A DNA stretch of 61,762 bases, the filler included, from Squatina squatina (lineage: Eukaryota): NCBI GenBank assembly GCA_031763465.1. It is 4 parts of 4 records of this genome, joined end to end, with 100 filler letters (N's around TTAATTAATTAA, not from the genome) between each part and the next. Parts side by side here need not be neighbours in the genome. Positions count along the whole stretch, not along the records: positions 15,454 to 30,349 come from JARFOE010664962.1; 3 more parts are not named here. One strand, given 5' to 3'. The notes below the pieces were generated by a model that saw nothing but the letters and a program-made list of their open reading frames with translations, did no database searches and was not told where the DNA came from. Every line of letters starts with the position of its first letter. Within the stretch, counting starts at the first letter, position 1. Below are positions 9,996 to 52,435 of the stretch, piece after piece. Both the position numbers and the translations under genes were made by a program.

Positions 9996-10330
9996 TTATA
10001 TCATAGTTAATTGGGTGAGATCTAGGTCAATCGAGAGAACATCTTTGAATTCTAATAAGACAAATTAATGACCAAAAGGTCATTCGAAAGTTAACCTCAC
10101 CTAATGTGTGTGTAAATATGCATTTAAGTGGAAGTTAGATAAACACATGAGCGAGAAAGGAAGAGAAGGTTATCCTAATAGGATTAGATGAAGAGGAGTG
10201 CGAGGACGCTTGTATGGCGCATGAACACCAGCATGGACTAGTTGGGCTGTACTTTCTATGTCATTCTATGCATTCTATGTCTGGGTAAAAATACAAGACT
10301 GATTTTGTTTGCTTTTCTTTTCTCTTAAAG

Positions 10331-10574
10331 ACCAAGTTTACAGCTGACTGCAATTTCAAGGAGAGGTATCAAGAGAACAGCTACAACACTTATGCCTCGG
10401 CCACTTACAAAAGCGAGAACAATAGCCGAGAGTGGTACGTGGCTTTAAATAAATGCGGTAAAGTTAAAAAAGGGAACAGCCCTCGGGTGAAACCTCAGCA
10501 CATTTCGACACATTTCCTTCCAAGGTTCAAACAGTCTGAAAAAGAAAAGACCTTCAAAATTACGAGAAAAATTC
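10331..10574 (+). CDS. FGF5: Fibroblast growth factor 5, last coding exon (truncated by N-gap)
   Basis: Polypyrimidine tract and AG (ttttctcttaaag), then [91 protein letters not shown] is characteristic of FGF5. Confidence 0.93.
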
Positions 10575-13719: not shown

Positions 13720-13796
13720 CACTGAAGAAAGCTTTTGCTGAAAATGAAGAAATCCAGGCTATGGCTGACAAAGATTTCATTATGTTGAATCTAATG
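13720..13796 (+). CDS. Anterior gradient protein (AGR3-like, AGR2/AGR3/Ag1 family) internal exon
   Basis: ctttttcag|...|gtaag, 77 nt, phase 1 to 0, encoding (A)LKKAFAENEEIQAMADKDFIMLNLM; compare human AGR3 ALKKVFAQNEEIQEMAQNKFIMLNLM. Not in the ORF track. Confidence 0.85.
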
Positions 13797-15353: not shown

Positions 15354-15453
15354 NNNNNNNNNNNNNNNNNNNNNNNNNNNNNNNNNNNNNNNNNNNNTTA
15401 ATTAATTAANNNNNNNNNNNNNNNNNNNNNNNNNNNNNNNNNNNNNNNNNNNN
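15354..15453. other. Artificial scaffold-concatenation linker (N44-TTAATTAATTAA-N44)
   Basis: Six-frame stop palindrome centred in exactly 100 nt; the same construct occurs three times. Confidence 0.95.
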
Positions 15454-15645
15454 CAGCACGGGTTAGATACAGAGTAAAGCTCCCTCTACACTGTCCCATC
15501 AAACACTCCCAGGACAGGTACAGCACGGGTCAGATACAGAGTAAAGCTCCCTCTACACAGTCCATCAAACACTCCCAGGGCAGGTACAGCACGGGTTAGA
15601 TCGAGTAAAGCTCCCTCTACACAGTCCCATCAAACACTCCCAGCT
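15454..15645 (+). repeat. ~67-bp tandem repeat, about 3 copies
   Basis: Unit CAGCACGGGTTAGATACAGAGTAAAGCTCCCTCTACACTGTCCCATCAAACACTCCCAGGACAGGTA starts at 15454, 15521 and 15587. Confidence 0.9.
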
Positions 15646-16084
15646 CAGTTACTTTTGAACACATGTTCTTTCGATTTGAAACCAAATTGCTGCAGTTAAT
15701 TTTGATACAAAAACAGAAAACAAACATGAAGGTCAGAACATGATCCGGGGTCCTAATTGTGGGAGTCTGCAGGCTGTTTATTTATCTGAAAGGAACATAT
15801 TTAGCTGAACTAAATATTTTGTAGAGCTCGGTGACTGAATACATTTTTCCTTAATTGTGAAGTCAGTGACTGGACTGGTTTAGATTCTGAACAAAACTGC
15901 TTCATATTTCTGATGTGTTATCGAGCTTTGCTGTTCAAATGAACTGTTAGTTCTCAGTTCAGCACCCGAGGAAGTTCAGTGCCAATTCCATGTCATCCTT
16001 TATCATCCAACTGGGTTAGATTTCAAAGGTTCCTGTTGTTGTTTTAACCAAGGCTGATTGTCATGCATTGGAAGTGGTTGTGAA

Positions 16085-16465
16085 AGGAAGAACTTTCCTT
16101 TTTATATACAGCACCTTTCATGACCTCAGGATGTTCCTGAGCACTTCACTGCCAATGAAGTACTTTTGAAGTGTTTGTAACACAGGGAACATGACAGGCA
16201 GTTTGTGCACAGCAGGATCCCACAAACAATAGCATGATAATGACCAGACAATCTGTTTAGTGCTGTTCCGGGATAAATATTGGCCTGGACATCGGGGAGT
16301 TAGTTTAACGTCTCATCCAAAAGACACCACTTCCAACAGTGCAGCAACCCCTCAGTATTGCACTGGAGTGTCAGCCTACATTTTGTGCTCAAGTCTCTGG
16401 AGTGGGACTTGAACCCACAACCATGTGGCTCCGAGGCGAGAGTGCGACTCTGAGTCACAGCTGAA
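16085..16465 (-). mobile_element. tRNA-derived SINE (SacSINE1/DeuSINE-like)
   Basis: Reverse complement of the 55010-55410 family, with a B-box-like GGGTTCAAGTCCC. Confidence 0.75.
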
Positions 16466-16710
16466 TAGGCGGCTATTGTCTGTATAAACCATCGCCCAAA
16501 GTGAACATTACCCCGCTCATCTCTCCCAAAGAAAGTAACACCAGGCTACTTAATCTTTCCTTCTCACTTAACGTGCCAATACTGGGAACCATCCTGGATC
16601 CGTAGCGCTGTGAGCTCTCATGGCCCAGAGTGTCCTTTGCCATGACTGGGTGATCCAGAATTGCACACAGACCTTCACATGAGGTTTGACCAACCACCCA
16701 CGATACAATG

Positions 16711-16895
16711 GGGGGTGAAATTGGTCTCGGGCCGTAACATGAAACGGGCGATGGTAAATCACCCGCCCGTTATACACCTGCCCAGATTTTAATTCCATTG
16801 ACTACAATAGAAAAGAAAATCGGGCGGAGTGTGGAACGGGCTGTCGATCCACCATTGATCGTTTCGCACAACCATCCAAGACCAATTTCACCCCC
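16711..16895. mobile_element. Palindromic MITE with perfect 17-bp terminal inverted repeats
   Basis: GGGGGTGAAATTGGTCT at 16711 and AGACCAATTTCACCCCC ending 16895, with a central TTCCATTGACTACAATAGAA palindrome. Confidence 0.8.
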
Positions 16896-17264
16896 AGTGT
16901 GTTCTTTTTAAACCGAGTTCTCTGCTGATCCAGCCAAGCTCCTGTTGAGCATTCTTACAGGAGCACTTCAGCAGAGTGCTGAGAGTTTCATGGATTGTTT
17001 CAGTTGTTCCCAGATGCATTTCCCGATCACCACGCCACAACATCGTACGATGCATTGCCCCACACTTACCGCCCAAAAGACCATTGACTGTAAATGCTGA
17101 CTGATATTATCGTGCCACCCGCAATGGAAACACTCAGCAGTTCAGGCAGCACCTGTGGAGAGAGAAGCAGAGTTAACATTTCAGATCGATGACCTTTCAT
17201 CAGAACTCTTTTATTTGGATTTCCAGGATCCACAGCATTTTAATTTTGTTTTACAGTTGTTGAA

Positions 17265-17640
17265 GAAGACTTGAATTTTTACAGTCCTGTTTACAGCTGC
17301 AGGACGTCCCAAAGGGCCACACAGCCAAAGGAATACATTTGAAGTGTAGTCACTGTTGTAATATAGGGAAACGCAGCAACCAATCTGCGCACAGCAAGCT
17401 CCCACAAACAGCAATGAGATAAAGACCAGATCATCTGTTTCAGAGCTGATGGATGAGGGCTAAATGTTGGCCAGGACACTGGTGAGAACTCACCTGGTCT
17501 TTGAAATAGTTCCGTGGAATCTCTTACATCCCATCTCAGAGGGTGGGTGGGTAGATCCTCGGTTTACCATCTCACCCGAAAGACGGCACCTCGGACAGTG
17601 CAGCGCTCCGTCAGCACTGCACTGGAGTGTCAGCACATTA
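17265..17640 (-). mobile_element. tRNA-derived SINE (SacSINE1/DeuSINE-like)
   Basis: Contains GGGAAACGCAGCAACCAATCTGCGCACAGCAAGCTCCCACAAACAGCAATG, the family core. Confidence 0.75.
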
Positions 17641-20306
17641 ACACTTTCCGGGCTCACCAGTCCTCCTGAATCCAGCTCTATTTTTCTTCATTCGCACTGC
17701 CTCCGCTTCTTGTAAAAGAGGCAAATTTGAGGGAGTTTCTCAGGAAAACCTTTCTCACTTTCGGAGACAGTATCTGAGTAATTTCCAGCATGACATGTGG
17801 TCAGTAGCATGCTTGGGAGGAGCCGGTGACTTTAGACTTGTGGGTCTAAAAGCTCTCCACCGTTTGGAGTTTTCCTCGCCTCATGTCTGCGTCTATTGTA
17901 GACTCATCGCTCGAGATTGATCGCTGTGATGAGTCCACAGCTCTATTATCATACCAGGATGGTAGAAGGGTCTAGATTAGGGTGACCGTGCACATTTGTT
18001 TTACATTTGTGGTGTATATGTGCAACTGTTTAAAACAAACTTTTTGCCTCCATTTTCCATTCTGGCTACTTTGCTGTGCTCCCACCCTGTTTATCCCCCA
18101 AATTCAATTTACGAAAGATGGTCACCCTAACTGAGCTGGACCTTAGGAATTGCAGGACCAAGACAGCCCATGTTCCTAAGCCGCAAGGTTCCTAGAACTG
18201 ACAATTGGATATCTCTTTCATAAGCCATTTCAAACCTGAGAAGCCATCTGTGAATACTGTGCATTTCTAGATTGTCTATCCAGCACTGCATCTTATGGTT
18301 TCTGTTCTTTGACACTTTACCTTTGACTTGCATGGCTTTTCATCAGAAGCTGTAGTGCCAGCGGCCAGAATTTTCATGCCTTTGCAGTTCTTGGCTGTCG
18401 ACCGGTCCTCATGGGCAATTTTAACCTACCCTGCAGTTGGCAAACTGAATGGATCGGGTACAATACTGGTTTCACACCCAGCCCGATTTGACTCTGTCGT
18501 CGATGGAGAGTAATATTGGGCAAGGTGTAAAACTGGCATTCCACCCAATCTCACGGCTTTACCGCCCGGCGAGTTAGGTTCAAGTGACCCAATGCTGACC
18601 TCTTGCAGTGGTTTCCATTTCTCACCAGTCCATTGTAATATTTCCCGGGTGAATTAACATGAAAGTCTCATTAACTATTCCCCACCCGCCGCCCCCCGCC
18701 CCCAGTTTCCACTGAGCATCTCCCAACTGTTTGGATTTTGCTGGTCGTTGAACTGATTTGCAGTCGCTTCTACAATCTTGCCGCACAGAAGGATGTCAGT
18801 CCATTCTCTCTCATTCTAGTGAACAGCTCTATTCTGATCACCACATATAAAGAAGTCCTCATCTTCAGCCTGAACTATTCAACCTTGTCACCTTATTAAA
18901 GTTTAAATGCAGAAGAGCCAGTGAACACAGTGGCTGTTGAACAGAAAACCGAGTGATGCAGCACTCCTGCACAACCTGTTGCTCTCTCTCTGTTACTCTC
19001 TCCCCATCTCTATCCTGCACAACCTCCACACACATGCACTAACTTGCTCCTTGGGTTTTCAGCTGTTTTTTATCACCTGTGATGATGAACATCCTGTCAA
19101 TTTACATAAATCTCTGTACAGTCCCATCCTTGCCCTATTTCTAAGAGTTCAGTCATTAATGGCCTTTCTACTTTTACTGTCCTTGACCTCAACTCGCTGG
19201 CCCTCCATCACCTCGGCTTACATTAACCTTCTAATGTTTTATGCCAGTGTGGCCGGCATTTATTGCTCATCCCTGGTTGCCCTGGGGATGTGACTGGAGT
19301 GACATGTAGGCCCAGACCGGGGAGGGTGGCAGGTTCCCTTCCCTGAAGAACTTTAATGAATCAGGTGCGTTTTTACCACAATCTGGCAGCTTCCCCTGGT
19401 CATTTTATCTGGTGCCAGACCAGAAATCACCAGAATGAATGGTCTCAATTTCCCAACTTGCCATGGCGTGGTTTGTACTCACAAACTCTCACACAATGTA
19501 TTTCCATGGGTCCTATTTGTTATCTTACCCATGTGACCATTCTCTGCAGGTTCTGCCTGTCAATTATGTAGAATCTAAAGTACTTTAATCTCCCAATCCA
19601 TGTCACCTCTTTAAAAAGAGGACAAGACTGCTGCCAATGAATCAGAAGCGGTCTGCGCATGCGCACTGACGGTTCGTCACGGGAGCGGGTTCGTTTAAAA
19701 AAATGTTAAAGGTGGGAAAATTAAAAAGAAAAGAAAAGCCGTGAAGGGAGCAGCCTGGTGAAGAAGTCGGAGCACTCCTCAGATCCTCTGTCTGTTGTGG
19801 TGAACATTATTTTAAAAATTTGGGACCTGACAGTTATGCGCAGAATGCTTCTGTGCAGCTTCTAGTAGCTTCCGGTTCGTCGGTAGGAGTCACTCCATTT
19901 TGAGAAAAGTCTCAGTTATTCCAATAACTTGGTGCCGAATCCTGCCATTTCTGTAAACTCCTATCATTCGGTGCAAACATTAATTGGTTTTGGGATGACA
20001 GACAGGGCCTCGGTTTAATGTCTCATCTGAAAGGTGGCACCTCAGACAGTGGAGCACTCCCTCAGTAGTGCACTGGAGTGACGGCCCAGATCATGGGCTC
20101 AAGTCTCTGGATGGGCTTGAAACCACGACTTTCTGACTCCGAGGTGAGAGTGCCACCAACTGAGATTAAAACTGTAAACTCTTGCATATCAGTGTAACTG
20201 TTTTTGGAAATGGCTGGTTTTATACAGAACAAAATCTCTCCTGCTGCATCTGCCTGTAATGAACATTTTTACTCGACTTACCCGTGTGCACCTATTTATG
20301 TTTCAG

Positions 20307-20627
20307 ATGTCCAGTCTGCACCATCAGTCTACATCCCCAACCCTTCCTGCGGCAGGAACTCCAACCAAGATGAGGTCACCTTCCTCTGCCTGGTCAAGGA
20401 CTTTCAGCCCGAGAGCATCAGTCAGACATGGTCCAGTAACAGTGCAGACATCACGACTGGAATCAAGAAGTATCCGGCAGTCTTGGGGCAAAATATGAAG
20501 TACACGATGAGCAGTGTGCTCAAAGTCTCTACGTCAGATTGGAAAGCCAATGGGTTCTACTACTGCAAGGCGGGGTACAAGCCAAATGAAATGGTGGAAG
20601 TTCCGACCCCAATATATGAACCTGAAC
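20307..20627 (+). CDS. IgW: Immunoglobulin W heavy chain CH1 exon
   Basis: tttcag|...|gttagt, phase 1-1. C1-set Ig domain [15 protein letters not shown]...[17 protein letters not shown]...KKYPAVLG...YYCKAGYKP has IgW-type CH1 features. Confidence 0.9.
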
Positions 20628-21009
20628 GTTAGTACAAGACCTTATTTGCCATTTAAACTGCACTATCGGGGGATGTAATTGGACACAGAAATTTCACCAG
20701 CCAATGTAGGAGGTTGTTGTGCAATAGAGCCCGAATGAATTCTTGTGCCCATATATTCTATTCCTGGACGCCAGCAGTGCTGATGGTAACAGAATAAAGG
20801 ACAGTGAGAAATCACATGCAAGGGCAGAGACGTAATGTCATTGGAACCACATCTGCTGTCCGTGATACAACGCGTCCGATATTCAGTTCTAAAGTCAATG
20901 AAGCTGAGCATCGGGCGGAGTGTGTAACGGGCGACCGATGTCATACCGCCTGCATTGGGCCCGTGCCCATGTCCAATTTTAGACCCACCCCCAATCAGGC
21001 TGTGGTTCA

Positions 21010-21750
21010 TCGAATCATACAGGACAGGAGGCCATTTGGCCCATCACGCCTGTATCAGCGGTAGCAGAGGTATCAAATTAGTCCCACTCACCCTGCTCTT
21101 TCCCCAAAGCCCAGGACATTTCCCCTGTTCAAATACTTATTCAATTCTCTTTTGAAAATTACGATTGAATCTGCTTCCACCACCCTCTTTCAGGCAGTGC
21201 ATTACAGATCTTAAATGGTCGCAGTCATTTTTTGGGGGTTAAATTCCTCCCCCTCCCCCACCCTCGGCTTCTTTTTGCCAATTATATTAAATCTGTGTCC
21301 TCTGGCTACCAATCCACCTGCCAGTGGAAACAGTTCCCCACCCCCCATCCACTAAATCCCTCCCAATTTTGAACCCCTCCATGAAATCCTCCCTTCGCCT
21401 TCTCTGCTCTACTTATAACTGAAGTTCTCCATCCCTGGAATCATTCCAATAAATCTCCACTGCACCCTCTGCAAGGCCTTGAATTCCTTTGTAAAGGTGT
21501 GGTGCCCAGAATTGGACACAATATACTAGTTGAGGCCTTACCAGTGATTTATAATGGTTTTGCAATACCTTCCTTGCTTTTGTGCTCTATGCCTCTATTT
21601 CGAAAGCCCAGGGTCCCGTATGCCTTTTATTAAACAGCCTCATCAACTTGTCCTGTCACCTTCAAAGATTTGTGTATATAAACCCACAGGTCGCTTCCGT
21701 CCCTGCACCCCCTTTAATATTGCACCATTTAATTTATTTTGCCTCTTTCG
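21010..21750 (-). mobile_element. CR1 LINE 3' end
   Basis: Starts with the reverse of a CR1 tail (GAATCATACAGG...GGCCATTTGGCCCATC) followed by RT C-terminal sequence (CCAGAATTGGACACAATA). Confidence 0.7.
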
Positions 21751-22388
21751 TTCTTCCATGACTGAAGTCAATGGAAAAGAAAATTGGGTGGAGCACAAAG
21801 CGGGCTGCCAATTCGCTGTTGTGCGTTTTGCGCTCCCACCCGAGACCAGTTTCTATGACATTTTACTTCAAATGGGCTTGTTCTTCCATTGCAATATGGA
21901 GAGAGGAATGTTGTAGGTACGGGCTAAACCTGCCTCCACTATTATGGACAATTGTAATTTCCACATGAAGTCCCCCAAAGGCTCAGCAAAAACTTTACAA
22001 AGTGCGACCCTGTAAGCACCGATCTCCGACCCATCTGTGGGCAATGTGGGATGTTCAGGTGCCAACAGAAAAATGCTGAACATATACAGCAAGTTGGTCA
22101 GCATCTGAAGTGTGAACAGGTAGACTTGTTTGTCCGAACTCAGAGCTGAAGAGTAACCAAACATTTCAGGAGTGGGCAAGAGAGAACCCAGTAGATTTTC
22201 AGACTGCTTGATATGAAAGGTCAACTGAGTGATACACAGCTGGCAGTTGTACTGTCGATACTGATATCTGTACAGAGGAACACAGGAACAGGTGTAGGCT
22301 ATTCAACCCCTCCAGCCTATTCTGCTACTCAATTAGATCATGGCGAGTCTCAACCCCATTTAATCTGCAATATTGCAATGTGTTACAG

Positions 22389-22697
22389 CTCAACCTCCAA
22401 AGCTTATCTCCCTTGTTCCATCCCCGGAGGCTGTCTACAATCAAACCGAAGTGGTACTGGGCTGTGCGATATCTGGATTCCATCCCAACGAACTTCAAGC
22501 TTCCTGGGAGAAAGCCGGAGTGGAACAAACAGATGCTGTTCTCCTCCCTTCCATGCAGAAAACTGATGCAACTTTTGAAACGGTGACTTACCTGATGGTG
22601 CCTGTGGAGGAATGGACCAAAGGAGACGTCTACACTTGCAAAGTGTTCCATGAATCTTCCAGCTTCAGTGACAGGATCAGCATGAGGTATCGAAAGG
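22389..22697 (+). CDS. IgW: IgW CH2 exon
   Basis: ttacag|...|gtaagt, phase 1-1, encoding QPPKLISLVPSPEAVYNQTEVVLGCAISGFHP...WTKGDVYTCKVFHESSSFSDRISMRYRK. Confidence 0.92.
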
Positions 22698-23423
22698 GTA
22701 AGTGGTGTCTGAGGGGAAAAAGAATACACTGTCAGTTATTCAGCCTTGTAAATGAATGCGCTGACACTCACCCTTAATTTGTGAATCCTTGTCCCTAATA
22801 TCGACCTTGGTGAGAGGCAAGATGTTTAATATTTTGAGTTGATATTGAACCGACACTTGGAGAGTAATTTTAAACCAACGCGCTGGGTGGGGAAACTGCC
22901 GGGATCGGGTTGGCCACCTGTTTATACCCTCGCCCAATATTAGTCTCCGCTAACTTCAATGGAAAGGAAAATGGGGCGGAGTGTGAAATGGGCGGCCCAT
23001 CTGATACCATCCACAATTCAAATCACCTCCTACCTGTTCTCTTTCTACTGTCTCCCAAATGTTGTTCTATGAAAGGAATCTATCCAGTTTTGCATTTTAA
23101 TAAATCTTCATGATCTGCTGCCACCATCTCCTGAGGGAGCATATTCCATAGATTGAGCTCTCACTGAAATATTGTTTCCCCAGATCAGATTAGAATTCAT
23201 CCCCCACCCCACCAACTTTCCAGCGCAGGTCCTGTCCTCTGGTTCGACTGCTCAGGACCAGGTGAAACAGCTTTTCATGGTCTACATGATCTGGTCCCTT
23301 TTTAGGATCCCAAAAACTCAGGATGGAGCAGAGTTCAGGGGCTGTGTGGAGCTCCCACTTTCCCAGCACGGGAGGGGAGGTGAGAATGCATAAGGCTTAA
23401 ATCTCCAACTCTTCTAGTTCCAG

Positions 23424-23537
23424 GTGGAAACGGTGCTTGCTCTTGTTCTGCGTGTTTGCCGAAGTTCCTCGACTAGACTAACCTGAACGTGACATTCTCA
23501 ATATAGATGTCGCCAACAAAAGTGCAAAATAAAGTGA
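23424..23537 (+). pseudogene. IgW: IgW short-form cysteine-rich secretory tail exon, copy 1 (premature stop and 17-nt deletion)
   Basis: ttccag| then (G)GNGACSCSACLPKFLD* with TAG at 23474-23476, then TNLNVTF and an out-of-frame QYRCRQQKCKIK*. Aligns to the intact copy at 25257. Confidence 0.8.
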
Positions 23538-23933
23538 TTGGTTGTGAATGGAATTGGCCGTTGGATTTTATTGCAAACTGTTTGGCGGGTCCAAATCCAG
23601 CCCACGGTGTCTGGCGGGATGGAGTATTAACAGGGGGAGTTTATACAGCCGAAGCTCAGGTTCCACACCCAACCCACTCCTTGTCTGTACAGTCATTTTT
23701 TTTGTGAACTGTGCTGGGTCACTTTGGATCAGGTCCCGACTTCCCAGCTTAACTGGTGCCTCTCTGGTCTGACTCTGGAGGCAAGAATTAGAAGCCCATC
23801 TCTCGCCCAGGGATGCAGTGGAGTGGGAGGTGGNNNNNNNNNNNNNNNNNNNNNNNNNNNNNNNNNNNNNNNNNNNNNNNNNNNNNNNNNNNNNNNNNNN
23901 NNNNNNNNNNNNNNNNNNNNNNNNNNNNNNNNN

Positions 23934-23996
23934 CCTGTACAGTGTCTCATCCGCCCTCCAAGTTCCACACCAGCCGGGATGTGAAGAATGACCAAG
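23934..23996 (+). CDS. IgW: 3' end of an additional IgW CH4-type exon (remainder in N-gap)
   Basis: CTVSHPPSKFHTSRDVKNDQ|gtaggc, identical to 28465-28527. Confidence 0.85.
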
Positions 23997-24139
23997 GTAG
24001 GCCCCTGGGCCTGATTCCAATGTTGACATCATGTGTCCCCACTGCTGTAAAGCCTGCTGGAGCTCAACAGGTTCAACACTGATGACATAGGTAATGTAGC
24101 GGTTATGTGAGTGGACGAGTAATGCAGAGGCCTGGAGAA

Positions 24140-24607
24140 AGAAAGAAAGAGAACTGCATTTATGTTTCTCCTTTCACAACCTCAGTGCATTCAAAAGCGC
24201 TTTACAGCCAACAAAGTAAGTTTTCATTGAAGTGTAGTCACTGCTGTCACGTAAGGGACGCATCAACCAACCTGCACACAGCAAGGTCCCATAAACAGCA
24301 ATGTAGAAATGAGCAGATAATCTGTCTTCTTGCTGCTGGTGGAGGGATAAATATTGAGCAGGCCACGGAGGAGATCTCCCTGCTCTTCTTCAAAATAGTG
24401 GAGGTGGGATCTCTTTGGTCCACCTGAGAGGGCAGACGGGATCTCGGTTTAACGTCTCATCTGAAAGGTGGCACAGCCGACAGTGCAGCGCTCCCTCAGT
24501 ACTGGGACTGGGAGTGTTGGTCTGGATTATGTGCTCAAGTCTCTGCAGTGAGGCTTGAACGGACAACTTTCTGACAGAGGAGAGGTTGTTGCCAATGAGC
24601 CAAGGCT
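24140..24607 (-). mobile_element. tRNA-derived SINE, duplicated with the IgW block (counterpart at 28675-29095)
   Basis: Family core present at the same position relative to the CH4 exon in both copies. Confidence 0.75.
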
Positions 24608-25256
24608 GAAAGTCATAGTTAATAATCCAGAGAACTGAGTTCAGATCCCACCAAGGCAGTTTGAGAATTTGAATTCAGTTCCTGAAGTAAAAACTGTAAA
24701 TAAAAGGTTGTTAGAAGTGACCGTGAAGGCCGTTTACACCCTTGCCCAATTGTACTCTCCATGGCTTCAATAGAAAGGAAAATGGGGTGGGCGTGAAGCG
24801 GGCGGCACATCTGGTACTTTCCACAGTTCGAATCACGTCCTACAAGTTCCTTTTATACTGCTTCCAAAATGTTGCTTTGTGTAACAAATCTATCCAAATG
24901 TGGTTTTTTGAAGTAAATTTTGAAATTGCATGAATTACCACAATCTGCTTCCACCGTCTCCCGCGGGAGCAAGTTCCATAGATTCACCACTCACTGAAAC
25001 ATTGGCCCACTCCATTAGATTTGAATTGACACCTCGCCCCATTTAAGCACAGGTCCTGTCGTCTGGTTCTACTGTCCAAGACAAGGTGAAACAGCTTTTC
25101 ATGGTCTGCATGATCTGGTCCCTTTCGAATCCTAAAAGCTCAGGATGAAGCAGAGTTCAAGGACCGTGTGGAGCTCCCACTTTCCCAGCACAGGTGGGAG
25201 GCGGTGGGGGAGGTGAGAATGTATAACGCTTAAATCTGCAACTCTTCGAGTTCCAG

Positions 25257-25390
25257 GTGGAAAGGGTCCTGCTTGCTCATGTTCTGGGTGTATTCCAAGG
25301 TTCATCTACCAGACTTACCTTAACGTGACCCTTTCCAACGGTGCTGAACGTCAATATAGATGTCGCCAACAAACATGCGAAATAAAGTGA
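25257..25390 (+). CDS. IgW: IgW short-form cysteine-rich secretory tail exon, copy 2 (intact)
   Basis: ttccag| phase 1, encoding (G)GKGPACSCSGCIPRFIYQTYLNVTLSNGAERQYRCRQQTCEIK*. Resembles the skate IgX/IgW short tail as recalled (GGKCPGCSKCLPKFIYQSNLNVSFSDG...CEIK). AATAAA at 25381. Confidence 0.85.
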
Positions 25391-26839
25391 TTGGTTGTGA
25401 ACGGAATTGTCCGTTGGATTTTATTACAAACTGCTTGGCGGGTCCACATACAGCCCACGGTGTCTGTCGGGATGGAGTATTAACAGGGGGAGGCGATACA
25501 GCCCAAGCTCAGGTTCCACATCCAACCCACTCCTTGTCTGCACAGTCATTGTTTTGTGAACTGTGCTGGGTCACTTTGGATCAGGTCCCGGCTTCCCAGC
25601 TTAACTGTTGCCTCTCTGGTCTGACTCTGGAGGCAAGAATTAGAAGCCCATCTCTCGCCCAGGGATGCAGTGGAGTGGGAGGTGGGGGAGTGGGAAATGT
25701 CCCATTGATTCAGTGAAAGGTGGGGGGGAGTGAGGGAGGCTTCTTTAATGGTGTTGATCCTGGGACATATTGGTGAGAAGGGACACAGGGATCCAACTGG
25801 TGCCCTGGATGACCCCGGAGGTTTTGGATGAAAACTCCAGGAAGCAGGAACAGAAACAGTTCCATTCACTGCCCTCCCGGATATTGACAGCAGTCAGCGA
25901 GAGGAACTCAATGCTCAATGTTCACAAGGAATTCAAGTTAGGGAAGTATTTATAAATTCCTCCCATCAAGAGTAAACGGAATTACATGTTGCTTGCCCAA
26001 AAAGTTCAGCATTTTGCAATAATAAGCGGAATACTCCCGCCCCTGTGAGGTTTGGGAGACCGCCTATCACCAGGGACTGTTCAATGCTGAAACTTGATTA
26101 CTAATGCAAGGCAGGGCTGAACACCTTACAAAAAAACAGAATATTTAACACCAGCACAGTGCAGATTAAACCAAGGTTTACAAGTCATTGACCATATTCA
26201 AACATAGATTAACAAATCATTGACTGCACACTGTGACAAGCCTCAGCGGGACCAATCCCAATCCATCAGTATTATTGAAAGGATGTTGCTCACCATTTTG
26301 TTGAAAATGCCGGGTGGAGAAACAGAAAACATCTTAAATAATTAAAGACACTGTCCTGTCAGACAGAGACTCTGTACCAAACATCAGCTCAAACTACAGC
26401 CGGAGGAGTTGATTCCCGGTCTTCATTAAAGGTTTTAATCCTGACACAGAGATGGTCATCCTTCTCCAAGTGTTAAGTTAACATCAGACAGAGGGTAAAC
26501 GATCGATGTGAATCAAAGCAGATAGCTTCGCTGTGATTTGCACAGTGAATGTGTGTGTGTGAATAGTGCACAGAACACACAGTGAGCTGCGGGATATCTG
26601 AAATGATGATGGTCCTTTGGGAGACGATTGCAAAGGAGGAAATGTGTGGAGAATATCGTTCTCTTCCTAGTCCAATGGCTCAGACATGAAACGTGGGGAA
26701 GTGCATGTTGTGCAGAAATAATCCCAACCTGCAGCAAGTGGGGGACTTGTTACTTCCTCTGATTGAGGGCTTGGTCTTCCGTTGCAAACTAACCTTCTTC
26801 CTTGACATGGTGTCATCGACAACAACTTACGTTACAGAT

Positions 26840-27235
26840 CGTCAATGCGGTAAAATGTAATGTAAAACATCCCAAGGTGCTTCACAGGACCATAAACAGA
26901 CAAAAGTTGACACTGAGTCAGAGGAGGAGATATTAGGACAGGTGACCAAAAGCTTGGTGGAAAAGGTAGCTTTTCAGGTGCATCTTAAAGGAGAGAGAGG
27001 CGGCAGGTCACTGAGGTTTAGGGATGGAGTTCCAGAGATTAGGGCTGAGACGCTGAAGGCACTGCCACCAAAGCTGGGGTGAAGGGACTGGAGGATGTAT
27101 AAGAGGCCAGAGTTGGAGGAATACAGAGTTCTCAGAGGGTTGTAGGACTGCAGAAGGTTACAGAGATGGGGAGTGGCGAGGCCATGGAGATTTGAATACG
27201 AGGATAAGAATTTTAAAATTGAAGCAATCCTCGGC
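26840..27235 (-). mobile_element. L2 LINE 3' fragment
   Basis: GGTGACCAAAAGCTTGG and AGAATTTTAAAATTGA motifs shared with the other L2 pieces. Confidence 0.65.
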
Positions 27236-27819
27236 CCAGTCTGAAAGGAGAGGAGGGGTCCTCATTGATTCAGTGTGCTCAATGTCACCAATCAATCCAC
27301 AGCCCCACACGGGGGCTCTCAGCAAACACACATTCATTCAATTGTTTATTTTGTTAAGCGGTCTGCATCTCTCACTCCATCTCACAAACCAGAGATTGCT
27401 GGATCGTTATTAACATCACTGCATCGAAATGTCGCTGAGCTTCACAACTCCGTTGCAGTCCCCACTACGGATCAGTTGGTGACGGTTCTGGGAAACGGAT
27501 TCAAAGCAGATCCGGCGGATTATGCTCTGATTATGTTTACTCGGTTAAAACTTGCAAGCCAAGACATGTAAGATATATTTTAAACAATCCTGGGATGTTC
27601 TGATGTTCGATTTGCTAAAATTTAGCTCCAGTGTGGCTGGATCCAATATCAGGCCAAGACATTACAGATTAAAAAGGACTCGGCTTTAAACTGTTTAAAG
27701 TCACTCTGTCCTGACCTTCCATCACTTATCATCAATAGAAAAGTCTCTCCTAAAATTCTGAACCCCGCTGGCACCAGACATTGTCCATTCTTCTGAAATG
27801 TTCCCTTTCTCATTCCCAG

Positions 27820-28122
27820 AAATGTCTGTGTTTCTCCGAAATCCTTCTATTGAAGAGATTTGGATGAACAAGACTGCTACTCTGGTGTGTGAAGTGGTCT
27901 GTGCCGAACCGAGCAAGGTCCAAATCTCCTGGGCGGTGAGCGGGAAGGCGAGAAGAGAAGGGGTTGTGACCCAGCCACCGAGCGAGGTACAGAGCCGACA
28001 AATAGTCATCAGCAAACTGGAAACCAGCGTGAAGGAGTGGGCCAGCGGAGCAGAGTACGTGTGCTCTGTCCAAGGTGCTTCCTCGTCCTCGCCAGTGTCA
28101 AAACGGACAAGGAGTCCAAAAG
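27820..28122 (+). CDS. IgW: IgW CH3 exon (homologous to IgNAR C2)
   Basis: ttcccag|...|gtgggc, encoding EMSVFLRNPSIEEIWMNKTATLVCEV...SVKEWASGAEYVCSV...KRTRSPK. Confidence 0.92.
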
Positions 28123-28209
28123 GTGGGCAGAGATCAGAAATTTAACGCCAAGCTTTGATACACTCTTTTCCTCGAGGTTAACACTTTCTTTCTTGCACGT
28201 CTGTTCCAG

Positions 28210-28527
28210 TTGAAACAAAAAGCCCCACGGTCAGACTGCTGCCTCCAGCAGACCAAGAAACCAAGAGTAACAATACGGCCAAACTCGAGTGTGTGATCAC
28301 TGGATTCTACCCGGACCTCATACACGTCTCCTGGGAGAAAGACCGCTCTCCGATCTCCTCCAACACCAGCGCTGCACTCACCGCTCTGGAGCAGGCGGGA
28401 ACATTCAGTGTCAGGCACTTCCTGACTCTGAGTACAGAGGAGTGGAAGAAAGGCTCAGTCTTCACCTGTACAGTGTCTCATCCGCCCTCCAAGTTCCACA
28501 CCAGCCGGGATGTGAAGAATGACCAAG
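28210..28527 (+). CDS. IgW: IgW CH4 exon (homologous to IgNAR C3)
   Basis: Follows an 87-nt intron. ttccag|...|gtaggc, encoding VETKAPTVRLLPP...LECVITGFYPD...TALEQAGTFS...FTCTVSHPPS...KNDQ. Confidence 0.92.
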
Positions 28528-28674
28528 GTAGGCCCCTGGGCTTGATTCCAATGTTGACATCATGTTTCCCCACTGCTGTAAAGTCTGCTAGAGCTAGACA
28601 GGTTCAACACCAACGACATGGGTGTGGTCAAGTCGTGGTCATGTGAGTTGGACAATAATCCAGAGGCCTGGAGA

Positions 28675-29435
28675 AAGAAAGAGACAATTACATTTATGTT
28701 TCTCCTTTCACAATCTCTGGATGTTCTAAAGCGCTTGACAATTACAAAGTAATTTTTTTGTAGTGCAGTAACTGTTGTAATGTAGGGAACATGTCAACCA
28801 ATTTGCACACAGCAATGTGGTGATGACCAGATAGTCTGTTTTAGTGCTGTTGTTTGAGGGGTCAATATTCGGCAGGCCAAGGAGGAGCTCTCCCCTGCTC
28901 TTCTTCAAAATAGTGGCTGTGGAATCTCTTGGTCCACCCGAGGGCAGACGGGGCTTCGGTTTAATATCAGAAAGACCACATGTCCCACCGTGCAGCATTC
29001 TCTCAGTCCCAGTGCTGTGCTCAAGTCTCTGGAGTGGGGCTCCAACATACAACCACTGACAGAGAGGAGAAGGTACTGCCAATGAGCCGAGATTGACACA
29101 GTTAATAACCCAGAGAACTGAGATCAAATCCCACCCAGGCAGGTTGAGGATTTGAATTAAGTTTAAAAAGTAAAAACTGGAAATAAAACATTGGTATCTG
29201 TAAAAGTGACTGTGAAGCTGTTGGAATGTCAGAAAAACCCAACTGGTTCACTGAGGTTACTTTGTGGAAGGATACTTGTCCTTAACCTGTCTGCCCCACA
29301 CGTGACTCCAGTCCCACACCAAAGTGGTTGACTCTAAACCACCCTCTGAAGGGGCCGAGCAAGGCACTCAGTTCTACCTCTGGAGAGCAGCAAGAAGTGC
29401 TGGCCTTGCCAGCGATGCCCACGTCCCATCAGGGA
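28675..29435. mobile_element. Minus-strand SacSINE1-like SINE followed by a plus-strand tRNA-headed bipartite SINE
   Basis: Family cores as elsewhere. The second element ends TGGCCTTGCCAGCGATGCCCACGTCCCAT. Confidence 0.65.
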
Positions 29436-29469
29436 ACCATGAAATAATAATTGTAATATTTCTCCCAGA

Positions 29470-29789
29470 TGAATGTTTGGATACCAGCATCTCGGTCACT
29501 TTAAGCAAGCCTCTCTTCGAAGAGATTTGGAGGAACAGGACGGCGACCATTCTTTGTGAGGTGCTTCACAGTGATTTAGAGGGCTTCAGGGTAACCTGGC
29601 AGGTGGACGGACGTAAGAGAGAAGTTGGGGTGAAGACTGAGGGGCCTGAAAGGAATGGTGATAAAGACACGATCCTCAGTAGACTGACGGTCCCCGCCGC
29701 AGAGTGGGAGAGTGGGGTTGAGTATTTGTGTGTGGTGGAGGACAAGAGTTTGCCAACGCCGGAGAAGAGGTCAATCAAGAAGGCACAAG
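29470..29789 (+). CDS. IgW: IgW CH5 exon (homologous to IgNAR C4)
   Basis: ctcccag|...|gtacgt (start 29469/29470), encoding DECLDTSISVTLSKPLFEEIWRNRTATILCEVLHSDLE...EWESGVEYLCVVEDKSLPTPEKRSIKKAQ. Confidence 0.92.
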
Positions 29790-30349
29790 GTACGTGTGGA
29801 CAGAGCTCGGTGTGTGTCTGATCTAAGCAAATGAAGTGGTTTATTACCATCCAGCAGTGAGCTGTTTAGTACGAGGTGTCTGAGCATGTTAAAGACCAGA
29901 GATGCTCGGACCCTGCCGAGGAATGGGTCAGAAAATAATCCCAAATCACCGCAACAGCCTCGCCCCAAACCATACTGGTTCCCGTGGGATGAGTTCACAG
30001 CGGTGGGATAGACCCAGAGGGATTGGCAGCTTTCACAACATTAGGAAGAGCCTGAGTCAGGACAGCCATTGGGAGGATGAGGGAGCTTGTTTGTCTGAGG
30101 TGTAGGTTGAAGACAAGCAAATCCATTCAGAGGAAAGAGACATGGAGCAGACGGCACAGGATGAGGCAAGTCCATGGGCCTACCTCTTGACCACAGCAAG
30201 CAAGGGTCTGGGAAGTGGATCTCTGGTGTTTCTCACATAGAAACATAGAAAATAGGTGCAGGAGTCGGCCAATAGGCCCTTCGAGCCTGCACCGCCATTC
30301 AATATGATCATGGCTGATCATCCAACTCAGTACCCTGTACCTGCTTTCT

Positions 30350-30449
30350 NNNNNNNNNNNNNNNNNNNNNNNNNNNNNNNNNNNNNNNNNNNNTTAATTA
30401 ATTAANNNNNNNNNNNNNNNNNNNNNNNNNNNNNNNNNNNNNNNNNNNN
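30350..30449. other. Artificial scaffold-concatenation linker
   Basis: N44-TTAATTAATTAA-N44. Confidence 0.95.
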
Positions 30450-32799: not shown

Positions 32800-34934
32800 C
32801 CTCTGACGATGCAGAACCTTCGACAGTGCTGCACCTCTGACAATGCAGCACCTCTGACAACAGAACTTCCGGCAATGCAGCACCTCTGACATTGAAGCAC
32901 CTCCGACAATGCAGCACCTCTGACAGTGCAGCTCCTCTGAGAGTGCAGCACCTCTGACAATGCAGCACCTTCAACAGTGCAGCCCATCCAACAGTGCAGC
33001 CTCTCTGATAATATAGTACCTCTGACAATGCAGAACCTCTGTCGATGCAGTACCTCCGACAATGCACAACATCTGACAATGCAGCACCTCTGACATTGAA
33101 GCACCACCAACACTGACGCACCACTGACAATGCAGCAGCTCCGTCAATGCAGCACTTCTGACGTTGAAGCACCTCCGACAGTGCAGAACCTCTTACAGTG
33201 CAGCAACTCCTCAATGCAGCACCTCCGACAATGCAGTCCCTCTGACAATGCAGCACCAACGACAATACAGCAACTCCGGCAATGCAGCACCTCCTACGAT
33301 GCAGAACCTCTGATAATGCAGCACCTCCGACAATGCAGCACATCCGATAATGCATCACCTCTGACAATGCAGCTCATCTGACAATGCAGCACCTCCGACA
33401 ATGCTGCACCTCTGACAGTGCAGCACCTCTGACAAAGCAGCACCTCCGACAATGCAGCACCTCCGACAATGCAGCACCTCCGATAATGCAGCACCACCGA
33501 CAGTGCAACACCTCTGACAATGCAGCACCCTGACATTGAAGCACCTCTGACAATGCAGCTTCTCTGACAAAGCAGCACATCTGACAATGCAGCACCTCTG
33601 ACAATGCAACACTTCCGATAATGCAGCACCACTGACAATGCTGCACCTCCGGCAATGCAGTGCCTCTGACAGTGCAGCACCTCCCATAATGCAGAATCTC
33701 TGACGATGCAGAACCTTCGACAGTTCAGCACCTCTGACAGTGCAGCCCCTCTGACAGTGCAGCGCCTCCTCAATGCAGCACCTCCTCAATGCAGCATATC
33801 TGACACTGCAGCACCTCTGAGTGTGCAGCACCTCCGGCAATGCAGCATCTCTGACAGTGCAGCACCTGCAACATTGAAGCACCTCTGACAGTGCACCCCC
33901 TCTGACAGTGCAGCACCTCTGACAATGCAGCACCTCCAACAATGCAGCACCTCCGGCAATGCAGCATCTCTGACAGTGCAGCACCTGCAACATTGAAGCA
34001 CCTCTGACAGTGCAGTCCATCTGACAGTGCAGCGCCTCCTCAATGCAGCACCTCTGACAATGCAGCACCTCCGGCAATGCAGCACCTCTGACAGTGCAGC
34101 CCCTCTGACAGTGCAGCGCCTCCTCAATGCAGCACCTCTGACAATGCAGCACTTCTGAGTGTGCAGCCGCTCTGACAGTGCAGCCCCTCTGACAGTGCAG
34201 CACCTCCTCAATGCAGCCCCTTTGACAATGCAGCACCAACAACAGTGCAGCACCTCCAACGATGCAGCACATCCTACTGTGCAGAACCTCCTCAATGCAG
34301 CACCTCTGACAATGCACCACCAATGACAATGCACCACCTCCGGCAATGCAGAACCTCTGAGAATGCAGCACCTCCTACAACAGAACATCCGACAATGCAG
34401 CACCTCTGACAATGCAGCACCTCTGACAGTGCAGCACCTCCTACAACAGAACTTCCGACAATGCAGCACCTCTGACAATGCAGCACCTCCGACAATGCAG
34501 CACCTCTGACAGTGCAGCACCTGCAACATTGAAGCACCTCTGACAGTGCAGCCCATCTGACAGTGCAGTCGCTCCTCAATGCAGCAACTCTGACAATGCA
34601 GCACCCCTGACAGTGCAGCCCTTCCTCAATGCAGCAACTCTGACAATGCAGCACCTCTGACAATGCAGCACCTCCGATAATGCAGCACCTCTGACAATGG
34701 AGCACCTCCGACAATGCAGCACCTCCTACGATGCAGAACCTCTGACAATGCAGCACTTCTGACAGTGCAGCACCTCTGACAATGCAACACCTCTAACAAA
34801 GCAGCACCTCCGACAAAGCAGCACCTCCGATAATGCAGCACATCCTACATTACAGAACCTCTGACGATGCAGAACCTTCGACAGTGCTGCACCTCTGACA
34901 ATGCAGCACCTCTGACAACAGAACTTCCGGCAAT
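32800..34934 (+). repeat. 17-bp minisatellite (consensus CTCTGACAATGCAGCAC), roughly 125 units
   Basis: Repetition is directly visible. It produces the spurious VRGAALSEVLHCQRCC ORFs. Confidence 0.95.
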
Positions 34935-39361: not shown

Positions 39362-39884
39362 NNNNNNNNNNNNNNNNNNNNNNNNNNNNNNNNNNNNNNN
39401 NNNNNNNNNNNNNNNNNNNNNNNNNNNNNNNNNNNNNNNNNNNNNNNNNNNNNNNNNNNNNCTCGTAGTGTAAGGTGAAGTCACAGGAGCAGGTGGATTT
39501 CAGAGCAATCTGAGCTTCCTCGCCGACCTGCAACAGTCGAAGTACGACACGAGTTTTATTTAAGACGAGCAGGCCTAGGCTACCAAGCTGGTCACTGCTA
39601 AGGAGTCCACCCAGCGTGGCCCCGTCACCCGGGGCAGAAAGGGCCAAACGTCCAGCTCCAGTCTGGCCTGGGTTCGATCATCAGTCGAGACGCAGCAAGG
39701 GCCACAATTGGCCTCCGCACGCTGGGCTTGGGACAGGAATCTCAGCCAGGGGTTCCACCCTGGATCGCAGTCCAGGTACGGGCAAGTGTACGGCCATCGG
39801 GGGGAGGTCAGATCAGCTTCAGCTGTGACACCTTTCATGGTCGAACATACTGCAGGCCAGCTGTTTTAGGGAGAGTGGATCTGG

Positions 39885-40389
39885 TGATATATAGTAATGG
39901 CCTGGTCTCGGGTACAGAGGGCATCGTTTCAAGGTTTGCAGATGACATGAAACTCGGAAATGTAGTAAACAGTGAGGAGAATAGCAACAGAATTCAGGAG
40001 GACAGAGACAGGCTGGTGAGATGGGTAGACACACGGCAGGTGAAATTTAACGCCGAGAAGTGTGAAGTGATTCATTTTGGTACGAAGAATGAGTTGAGGC
40101 AATATAAACTAAATGGTACAATTGTAAAATGGGTGCAGGAGCAGAGAGACCTGGGGGTGTGTGTACACAAATCTCAAGGTGGCAGGGTAAGTTGAGAAGG
40201 TTGTTAAAAAGGCTTACGGGATCCTGAACTTTATTAACAGAGGCACAGAGTACAAAAGCCAGGACGTTACACTGAACTGTTTATAACTCACAGGTTCGGC
40301 CCCAGCTGGAGGATTGGGTCCAATTCCAGGCTCCGCACTTTAGGAAGGATGTCGAGGCCTTGGAGAGGGTGCGGAGGAGATTCACCAGA
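39885..40389 (+). mobile_element. CR1 LINE RT fragment
   Basis: SRFADDMKLG...KFNAEKCEVIHFG...EQRDLGV...LERVRRRFTRMVPG. Confidence 0.85.
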
Positions 40390-47809: not shown

Positions 47810-47909
47810 NNNNNNNNNNNNNNNNNNNNNNNNNNNNNNNNNNNNNNNNNNNNTTAATTAATTAANNNNNNNNNNNNNNNNNNNNNNNNNNNNNNNNNNN
47901 NNNNNNNNN
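47810..47909. other. Artificial scaffold-concatenation linker
   Basis: N44-TTAATTAATTAA-N44. Confidence 0.95.
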
Positions 47910-51392: not shown

Positions 51393-52435
51393 CATGTACC
51401 GCAACCGCAAAGACTACCACTCGCTGAATGTACACTTGGTGTGCAATCATGCTCAGCACATCATGATGGTGGATGCACGGTATCCTGACAGCAGTCATGA
51501 TGCTTTCATGTTGCACCAATCCGCTGTTCCCTCAGTCTTTGAGCCACCACGGCAAACCAGAGGGTGGCTACTGGGCCATGAGGACTATCCGCTGACCACC
51601 TGGCTCATGACTCCTCTCCGTAACCCAAGCACACATGTGGGCAGTATGCATACAATGAAAGCCATGCTGCCACATAGAATCTGATAGAGCAGACCATTGG
51701 CATCCTTAAACAACGCTTCCACTGCCTGGACTGAACTGGAGGTTGTGGTCTGCTGCATGCTCCACAACCTGGCCATCATGAGGGCACAGCACTTGCCACC
51801 AGTTGAGGAGGCAGAGGAAGCAGAAGAGAAGGAAGCGGAAGAGGAGGACGAAGAGGAGGAAGACGAAGCAGAAGAGGAGAAGGCGGAAGGGAGGAGGCAA
51901 CCCAGACATCCCCTTTCTGCCTGGACTATCCATGAGCGACTAATTCGACTCATGAGCACCTCATCCAACCAGTGAACGCAACCCCAATTTCCCATTCAAC
52001 AATAATCCCACACCTTATCTTCCCTCTGTTACTGATCATTACAGCGTCCTCTTGGGCACAATGCAGAAATAAAAGCCACCTCAAAAGAAATATTCCAATT
52101 CAACTTTATATATCAATCCACCTAGTATTACATAACAAAGTCAACTAATCAACTTTGTGCATTCCCTAGTGCCTGTCTTCTGTGTGCCTTTACCTGTCCT
52201 ATTGCTCCTACAAAGCGTGGGTAGCAGTGGCTGCTGGAAGGCTGCTGACTTTCAGTGGGTGACACTGTAGATGGCCTTGCAGGACAAACTCGAGCAGCTC
52301 TGGGCCTAGAATGCCTGGCTTCAGACAGCATCATCTCGTCATGGGTGGCAGCAGATTTGGCTTGTTGGCTGACAGGCAACAGCAAGGGCACTGGCGGAGT
52401 GGCAGTGATAGGAGGACAAATGCTGTCATCCTGAG
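51393..52435 (+). mobile_element. PIF/Harbinger transposase (HARBI1-like DDE) remnant with convergent ORF1 tail
   Basis: YRNRKDYHSLNVHLVC...VDARYPDSSHDAFML...GWLLG...WLMTP...IEQTIGILKQRF...CCMLHNLA, with frameshifts. Confidence 0.85.

Follow-up and report, generated by a model that had tools for sequence, protein, structure and literature searches.

A tandem duplication of the secretory tail, CH3 and CH4 exons in an IgW heavy-chain gene of Squatina squatina, with a probably homogenised core

The window analysed here is a 61,762-nt stretch of the Squatina squatina assembly GCA_031763465.1, in which four pieces are joined by artificial linkers of 100 filler letters; the piece from JARFOE010664962.1 (15454-30349) carries the constant region of an immunoglobulin heavy-chain gene (Table 1). 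By domain search and protein comparison, five of five exons (CH1-CH5) specify C1-set domains that are orthologous to and collinear with CH1-CH5 of IgW, with 72% identity to the named spiny dogfish IgW for CH3 (CH1, CH2 and CH4 in Table 1). The splice donor and acceptors of these exons are canonical, all exons are phase 1, and in a protein tree Squatina IgW groups with Squalus and Heptranchias. An IgNAR identity was ruled out: CH1 and CH2 of the IgW type are present, and the sole IgNAR-like match, P0014, so called from its layout, is 46-55% identical, as against 72-90% for spiny dogfish IgW. Judged from its sequence, the heavy-chain gene is elasmobranch IgW, as the preliminary description had it. 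That the locus is the constant region of a squalomorph shark IgW heavy-chain gene we consider probable, jointly with the whole explanation of the duplication given below.

Table 1. Features of the IgW locus, in positions of the window.
Feature	Position	Strand	Basis or remark
IgW CH1 exon	20307..20627	+	open C1-set domain; 79% to spiny dogfish IgW CH1; phase-1 splice sites
IgW CH2 exon	22389..22697	+	C1-set; 71% to spiny dogfish IgW; AG/GT sites
MITE-like palindromic repeat, intron 2	22860..23030 (limits approximate)	.	aligns with copies 16711-16895, 18400-18595
Duplicated unit, copy 1	22918..24728	+	interrupted by gap; about 4.49 kb if collapsed repeat fills gap
Secretory tail exon, copy 1	23424..23533	+	intact acceptor; TAG 23474-23476; AATAAA at 23528
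77-nt stretch	23757..23833	+	identical to 25609-25685; ends at contig end
100-N placeholder gap	23834..23933	.	would hide about 2779 nt
CH4 3' end, copy 1	23934..23996	+	intact donor; alignment to copy 2
Nested SINE-like repeats, post-CH4 intron copy 1	24090..24728	+	outer element cut at junction
Duplication junction	24728..24734	+	outer SINE-like element fused to 5'-truncated MITE-like element
Duplicated unit, copy 2, complete	24730..29217	+	self-BLAST and global alignment
Secretory tail exon, copy 2, intact	25257..25390	+	TGA 25388-25390; AATAAA at 25381
Putative collapsed repeat R, 2933 nt	25609..28541	+	drawn once, probably present at least 2 times; ends are the 77-mers where gap-flanking contigs stop
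IgW CH3 exon, copy 2 or consensus of collapsed copies	27820..28122	+	C1-set; IgW-like
IgW CH4 exon, copy 2 or consensus of collapsed copies	28210..28527	+	90% to spiny dogfish IgW P0015; C1-set
Nested SINE-like repeats, post-CH4 intron copy 2	28622..29385	+	outer element continues beyond breakpoint 29217
IgW CH5 exon	29469..29789	+	C1-set; 73-88% to penultimate domain of IgW long forms, IgNAR-like P0014 set aside

In a PDB search, the matches were to Ig constant domains in general, to IgNAR and to UrIg2; none of the 60 listed, out of 9111, is a chain named IgW. An Rfam search of the window gave no match. The contig ends 560 nt past CH5, and CH6 with its tailpiece, the TM exons and V, D and J segments are all absent from the window. 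No V or J match was found in 15454-20306 or elsewhere in the window (the piece begins at an artificial linker, and these segments may lie outside it), and the RSS-like matches from a scan of the window were weak, none having an adjoining V, D or J.

Part of this constant region is present twice, head to tail. In a self-BLAST of the window, 22920-23833 aligned with 24732-25685 (965 columns, 81.2% identity, E = 0) and 23934-24728 with 28465-29217 (810 columns, 76.4%, E = 2e-168), and global alignments agreed with this result in placing an abrupt loss of homology at about 22918/24730 and at 24728/29217. The unit of ~4.49 kb comprises the 3' part of intron 2, a secretory tail exon, CH3, CH4 and the 5' part of intron 4. 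At 24728-24730 the intron following CH4 runs directly into the CH2-CH3 intron; no N is present from 23934 to 30349, and the junction therefore sits within a single contig. The head-to-tail duplication of the tail-CH3-CH4 block is thus real, and an internal tandem duplication with an ungapped breakpoint near 24729, as proposed in the preliminary description, is confirmed on both counts.

The breakpoint lies among repeats that we take to be SINE-like and MITE-like from the structure of their copies within the window. On its left, the duplicated unit begins, at about 22918, inside a MITE-like repeat, and the element on the right of the junction lacks its first ~60 nt; the family copy at 16711-16895 folds as a single hairpin (z = -9.4; 0 of 200 shuffles equally good). 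The post-CH4 introns of both copies show identical nesting, one SINE-like repeat inside another, which they would have in common because both inherited it. These SINE-like copies are mutually nearest among those in the window (K2P 0.18 for the outer and 0.27 for the inner element), and their distances to other insertions in the window are 0.38-0.62. The junction had been described as lying between a truncated SINE and a MITE: the elements are there, but truncation is not confined to the SINE, as both are cut. Because the junction fuses two unrelated repeats, its two sides belonging to different families, we rejected homologous recombination between like elements. The parental breakpoint sites, 22918-22922 and 29218-29222, have 5 nt in common, of which the junction retains 4; after 20% divergence such microhomology is weak evidence.

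Of the first copy, the last 63 nt of CH4 (23934-23996) and nothing of CH3 can be seen, so that one full CH3-CH4 pair and the end of another CH4 are visible in cis and the remainder is deduced from the contig ends at the gap. The sequences flanking the gap bear on what it contains. The 77-nt stretch on its left ends at the contig end, and on its right 23934-24010 (77 nt), which begins in the end of CH4 copy 1, is identical to 28465-28541. Exactly 77 identical nt are also found at two other repeat-bounded contigs (32800/34858 and 52501/52585), and the window has 11 exact direct repeats of at least 40 nt, all of them 77 nt long or shorter. Exact 77-nt matches at contig ends point to a k=77 assembly graph in which 25609-28541 would be a collapsed repeat. 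Going by this signature, the gap most likely holds the rest of the intron, CH3 copy 1 and the 5' part of CH4 copy 1. The signature proves that the copies of the core are identical where it begins and where it ends, not throughout, and since 100-N gaps elsewhere in the window divide unrelated pieces (an FGF exon; a thioredoxin-like exon), the gap alone is no proof of linkage. The alignments and the signature together support the order CH1-CH2-tail-(CH3-CH4)-tail-CH3'-CH4'-CH5 put forward earlier. The 8-C-domain long form suggested with it stands as a minimum and not as a definite count: at least eight C domains would be encoded, counting CH3 copy 1 and CH6, neither of which is visible in the sequence, and eight is a minimum because the collapsed loop fits two, three or more units, or mixed 6-/8-domain alleles or clusters.

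Divergence between the copies is uneven. The flanks of the unit differ by about 0.2 substitutions per site, and identity climbs to 100% at the core: on the left, mismatches number 15/200 near the core versus 99/623 far from it (p=0.002) and on the right 22/200 versus 81/453 (p=0.027), with a 200-column near/far cut that was picked after the alignment was seen. We infer that the duplication is old and that its core was homogenised later. An attempt at dating was abandoned: K2P distances of 0.18-0.23 at 7e-10 per generation (the epaulette shark pedigree rate) translate into about 1.3-1.6e8 generations, an age that no realistic generation time allows, and we therefore offer no date beyond 'old'. 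Each CH4 copy of the white shark clusters with the basking shark copy of corresponding position (AU p=0.0025 against the white-shark pair, for groups named after the tree was seen), while the CH3 copies of the white shark are 91% alike. This is the pattern that an old duplication with patchy homogenisation would leave. Against this, positional grouping is not rejected for CH3 (p=0.29). A search of the open-access literature, a scope that mostly excludes subscription papers and so counts for little, found no description of the IgW junction or of IgW core homogenisation. An old duplication with a homogenised core is the more telling feature of the locus, and the preliminary description had left it out.

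Each copy of the unit has its own secretory tail exon. Tail 2 runs for 43 codons past the junction codon, with five Cys and one N-glycan sequon, and is 47-48% identical to the tails of the nurse shark 4-domain secreted IgW proteins P0017 and P0038 (tblastn E=6e-7 and 2e-8). This homology rests on direct comparison with the retrieved nurse shark proteins; when the tail exon by itself, a 43-aa query subject to a word-index limit, was searched against a database, no candidate was returned. Tail 1 has 16 codons past the junction codon, with three Cys, before a TAG and then a 17-nt deletion, and in its frameshifted remainder 9 of 12 residues agree with the nurse shark tails. Two other readings of the tail were rejected because the match to nurse shark is confined to the frame from 23424/25257: an end of 7-8 residues, which would follow from an acceptor at 23507/25360, and an open frame of 119 codons that starts at 25360. 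The first tail had been called a pseudogene; the earlier stop is present, but the term is too strong for a terminal exon whose acceptor and AATAAA are intact. With both retained, tail 1 can presumably still end a short secreted chain.

A repeated CH3-CH4 layout with a tail is already known and common in sharks; what can be read here is the exact join. Of 18 named species of sharks and rays, 11 have database IgW proteins with 2-7 CH3-CH4 pairs; at least two CH3 copies are found in 26 of 40 proteins and the layout 1-2-3-4-3-4-5-6 in 5 of 40. The arrangement CH1-CH2-(CH3-CH4)n-CH5-CH6 has n=2 in Heterodontus, Carcharodon, Cetorhinus, Scyliorhinus and Rhinoraja, and n=3-7 in Scyliorhinus, Chiloscyllium, Pristis and Mobula. 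Many of these homologues come from NCBI records with a loose name or none, which resemble automated predictions, and P0019 at least seems to span two clusters. As is likely in Squatina, the CH3-CH4 pair is repeated and its copies are often near-identical within a gene (90-100% inside one protein); these repeats are known from proteins alone, whereas in Squatina the tail exons and the junction are read from DNA. The nearest relatives in the set, Heptranchias P0011 and Squalus P0015, have one CH3-CH4 pair, although P0015 is a 4-domain membrane form and uninformative on pair number, and the protein trees that bear on shared versus separate duplication are short and mixed.

Zhang, Du Pasquier and Hsu reportedly described, in 2013, nurse shark clusters with two interspersed secretory exons. 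According to three reviews, shark IgW clusters have six to eight C exons and give 2-, 4-, 6- and 8-domain secreted forms, and IgW genes form multiple clusters, each holding 6-8 C exons in nurse shark (PMC4279169, PMC5192425, PMC6795676). Squatina has in common with the known clusters the isotype, the domain order and a Cys-rich tail exon after CH2 and after CH4, and nurse shark P0017 and P0038 represent the 4-domain product that would be expected from it; the nurse shark-type clusters belong to another lineage, and the first tail is shortened in Squatina.

The account we favour, and consider likely, is that of an old 4.49-kb tandem duplication in the IgW constant region whose core was later homogenised and then collapsed in the assembly. 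The duplication may stem from joining that was non-homologous or guided by microhomology; the CH3-CH4 cores would later have become near-identical through gene conversion or unequal crossing-over, while the edges drifted, and a short-read assembler would have collapsed the core, leaving the gap. It is unlikely that the window instead mixes alleles or clusters, with the contig bearing CH1, CH2 and tail 1 taken from a gene of six domains, where the core leads directly on to CH5, and the junction from another allele or paralogous cluster, in which case the duplication exists and the linear order shown here does not. The entry and exit of a collapsed loop cannot be phased, the other 100-N joins of the window are unreliable, and the multi-cluster organisation of IgW would supply such sources, as would a skate species with both 6- and 8-domain predicted IgW proteins (P0010, P0013). 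However, the two contigs sit side by side between two artificial linkers, with order and strand as expected; a second version of either flank is absent from the window, a weak point given its small size; and a molecule running core-junction-core is still required somewhere.

Rather improbable is a gap that conceals a deleted or broken CH3-CH4, leaving a 6-domain long form and a duplicate that is a relic like tail 1. The premature stop and the deletion in tail 1 would suit such decay, as would a CH3 copy 1 outside the visible sequence and an identity proven for only 77 nt per end, but the visible end of CH4 copy 1 and its donor are identical to copy 2, read pairs would normally resolve short identical ends, and relatives commonly have intact repeated CH3-CH4 pairs. 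That there is no duplication and the junction is a chimeric join is very hard to credit, even in a highly fragmented assembly with artificial linkers and at a site among repeats: the 1.6 kb around it differs by about 20% from each of the two sequences that would have been its sources, which argues against a mis-join of neighbouring sequence, the junction has no 77-nt repeat and divergence among the repeat copies of the window is much too great for them to share one, and other sharks show the same layout.

If the core is indeed present twice, then, because all exons are phase 1, the repeat would add two domains in frame and put another tail exon behind CH4. From a single gene, three products are then predicted: a secreted chain of two domains ending in the now short tail 1, a secreted chain of four domains that bears the complete Cys-rich tail 2 and, should CH6 lie past the contig, a long chain of at least eight domains. 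Related events are known. One paper describes two adjacent C exons of shark UrIg2 that were tandemly duplicated and homogenised by gene conversion, and also mentions that IgW and IgNAR underwent a two-exon duplication earlier (PMC12227049); UrIg2 shares with Squatina IgW this combination of tandem two-C-exon duplication and homogenisation but is a non-rearranging gene with different domains, and the Squatina unit includes a tail exon. Coelacanth IgW1 and sturgeon IgD, as summarised in PMC5192425, have tandem C-exon repeats, so that length in the IgD/W lineage changed by C-exon block duplication as in Squatina, although the blocks (Cw3-Cw4-Cw5 and Cd2-Cd3) and the lineages differ.

The Squatina duplication offers a sequence-level account of how a secretory exon reached its post-CH4 position and how IgW lengthened, and a duplication of this kind would explain the known 4- and 8-domain IgW forms. 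More speculatively, and in our view less likely than not, the IgW constant region of sharks and rays may be an array, (tail-CH3-CH4)n, that evolves in concert and varies in copy number, from n=1 to about 7 among species and perhaps also among clusters or alleles, with a secretory exon of its own in each repeat; the window would then contain the founding junction and may hide more than two units, and the function of the Cys-rich tail would pass from the 2- to the 4-domain form as tail 1 decays. If this is true, a secretory exon per repeat would yield a ladder of secreted antibodies (2, 4, 6 or more domains) from one gene. Existing knowledge of IgW function is unchanged by the Squatina duplication. 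The junction is also a marker, whose presence in other shark genomes would tell a single from a repeated CH3-CH4 duplication. Finally, the locus carries two warnings: short-read assemblies undercount IgW domains, and some long ray and shark proteins named 'titin-like' or 'uncharacterized' are IgW.

The IgW piece of the window carries five open phase-1 exons, all five of which (CH1-CH5) encode C1-set domains. These domains follow the same order as in named IgW proteins, with spiny dogfish IgW as best match (79% identity for CH1, 71% for CH2, 72% for CH3 and 90% for CH4), and cluster in trees with those of Squalus and Heptranchias, suggestive of a squalomorph shark; CH4 is the window domain closest to CH2 (29%). 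V, D, J, CH6 and TM exons were looked for and are absent from the window. CH3 (domain 27822-28121), which unlike CH4 sits on a long branch (0.3), contains a third Cys four residues past the first canonical one. As this Cys is present in 14 of 15 displayed homologous domains, each repeat adds a potential interchain bond.

Exons of the IgW constant region identified in the window
Exon	Position	Description
CH1	20307-20627	C1-set, phase 1
CH2	22389-22697	C1-set, phase 1
Tail 1	from 23424	acceptor as in tail 2; stop after 16 codons, then 17-nt deletion
Tail 2	25257-25390	43 residues after junction codon, 5 Cys
CH3	27820-28122	C1-set, phase 1
CH4	28210-28527	C1-set, phase 1
CH5	29469-29789	C1-set, phase 1

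Within this gene a unit of ~4.49 kb, comprising a secretory tail exon, CH3 and CH4, is duplicated in tandem, and the duplication is confirmed as a real feature. Self-comparison of the window yielded two long direct matches flanking a 100-N gap (23834-23933): 22920-23833 with 24732-25685 (81%, E=0) and 23934-24728 with 28465-29217 (76%, E=2e-168). In global alignments homology stops abruptly at ~22918/24730 and 24728/29217, so that both comparisons bear out the breakpoint near 24729 proposed in the preliminary description. Its gapless run of post-CH4 intron into CH2-CH3 intron likewise holds, because 23934-30349 is free of N and the join lies inside one contig.

The junction had also been placed between a truncated SINE and a MITE. 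It does lie among such elements, an outer SINE-like element being cut at 24728 (its copy 2 counterpart runs to ~29385), but the palindromic MITE-like element that starts at 24730 is truncated as well, lacking its first ~60 nt; both labels rest on structure. In both copies the post-CH4 intron holds one SINE-like repeat nested inside another. Between copies these repeats differ by K2P distances of 0.18 (outer) and 0.27 (inner), compared with 0.38-0.62 to other copies in the window (three outer and four inner compared), indicating that the nest is older than the duplication and was inherited by both copies. The parental sites have five bases in common, four of which the junction retains; this would fit microhomology-guided joining, though weakly given the divergence since then, and a subsequent deletion might have altered the join as first formed.

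The splice sites are phase-compatible. Tail 2 is intact; two secreted IgW proteins of nurse shark, each with V plus four C domains (P0017 and P0038), have ends that are 47-48% identical to it. Tail 1 had been called a pseudo-exon, and its early stop and deletion are plain to see; however, it keeps its acceptor, three Cys and AATAAA, and its frameshifted remainder still resembles a tail end. Because a terminal exon of this kind can still end a transcript, we prefer "shortened", and tail 1 may be in use. AATAAA lies within the last tail codons, directly ahead of the stop (25381-25390 and 23528-23537), and would, if used, give a very short 3' UTR; the Ile-Lys at this site is retained in nurse shark tails, which would preserve such a signal. 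Upstream of tail 1 (23410-23423), six bases before the AG of its acceptor, a substitution in copy 1 has introduced another AG that might act as a cryptic acceptor.

In de Bruijn assembly, contigs meeting at a branch have one k-mer in common. Here the last 77 nt of the left contig equal 25609-25685 exactly and the first 77 nt of the right contig equal 28465-28541 exactly; the same length recurs in two further repeat-bounded contigs (32800/34858 and 52501/52585). The window has 11 exact direct repeats of at least 40 nt, all of them no longer than 77 nt. These identities imply a graph of four segments around the gap (edges A-R, R-B, B-R and R-C, with R being 25609-28541 and B the junction segment), whose simplest path is A-R-B-R-C with ~2779 nt missing. 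We infer that a full first CH3-CH4 is hidden in the gap. The signature is compatible with various numbers of loop turns, with copies that differ in the middle, and with A coming from another allele or cluster; a mixture of alleles or clusters is in our judgment unlikely. That the first copy has decayed, as its shortened tail might suggest, is less likely still. An assembly artefact is highly improbable. At least one molecule must have B with sequence like R to its left and to its right, so the CH3-CH4 duplication is independent of gap linkage.

Divergence between the copy 1 and copy 2 flanks amounts to 0.18-0.23 substitutions per site, and identity rises toward the core, from the left through 83, 86, 91, 95 and 100% and from the right through 84, 88 and 100% (near versus far mismatch counts, p=0.002 and p=0.027, respectively, with the cut set after inspection). 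The gradient is explained by an old duplication in which conversion or unequal crossing-over would have homogenised the core and kept it so. Dating with a mutation rate taken from PMC10587355 gave an impossible age, and we assign no date. The reading we consider probable is a duplication whose first CH3-CH4 lies complete within the gap and whose core has been homogenised. Three products are predicted from it: a two-domain chain ending in a short tail, a four-domain chain bearing the entire Cys-rich tail, and a long chain. For the last, the eight C domains first proposed become at least eight, counting the CH3-CH4 that the simplest path would place in the gap.

Two database searches returned 41 proteins, of which one record was dropped and 40 (one IgNAR-like) were mapped. 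At least two CH3 copies occur in 26 of the 40, from 11 of 18 named species. These counts call for caution: the search is biased toward long proteins, isoforms of a single gene account for several records, many others resemble automated predictions, and one, P0019, seems to span two clusters. The exact 1-2-3-4-3-4-5-6 layout appears in five (Heterodontus, Rhinoraja, Carcharodon, Scyliorhinus and Cetorhinus), and CH3-CH4 pairs number up to 4 in Chiloscyllium, 6 in Mobula and 7 in Pristis; the two nearest relatives show one pair. Copies inside one protein are 51-100% identical, many >90%. For CH4, each white shark copy pairs with the basking shark copy at the same position, identity being 90% between the species against 75% within (AU p=0.0025, post hoc); white shark CH3 copies are 91% alike, and for CH3 the trees established neither grouping. 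P0018 and P0020 (Pristis pectinata) are annotated "titin-like" yet are IgW-type, with 6-7 CH3-CH4 pairs, and "uncharacterized" records in Chiloscyllium and Mobula are similar.

The primary paper on nurse shark IgW reportedly describes two interspersed secretory exons. [quoted passage not shown] PMC12227049 describes a two-exon duplication in IgW and, in UrIg2, exon pairs homogenised by conversion. Nurse shark pancreas IgW heavy chain runs at ~150 kDa versus 90 kDa for IgNAR (PMC13007054), which would suit either a long multi-repeat or a heavily glycosylated form. This paper, PMC8692893 and PMC4034164 contributed no information about exon layout. The present locus adds a readable junction, an identity gradient and a shortened first tail, none of which we found described in the open-access literature searched.

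The window contains three artificial linkers of the same sequence, each made of 12 nt between two runs of 44 N, at 15354-15453, 30350-30449 and 47810-47909; the first two bound the IgW piece (15454-30349). Elsewhere small contigs of unrelated content and differing GC are strung together with many 100-N gaps, and the neighbourhood outside this piece is therefore biologically meaningless. A 17-nt satellite (~126 copies) occupies 32800-34918, a contig that starts and ends with the same 77-mer and is thus a collapsed array; an 84-nt tandem repeat (52435-52661; 2.7 copies, 97% alike) runs up to a gap that bears the 77-nt signature. On the plus strand, 10289-10573 is a last-exon-like FGF gene piece (Pfam FGF, E=3e-17), which may resemble FGF5, and 13720-13796 is a small exon, possibly AGR2/AGR3-like, with a weak thioredoxin-like match below cut-off (E=0.0026). 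An open frame at 39602-40192 (+), with a weak reverse transcriptase match also below cut-off (E=0.0099), is probably a retroelement fragment.
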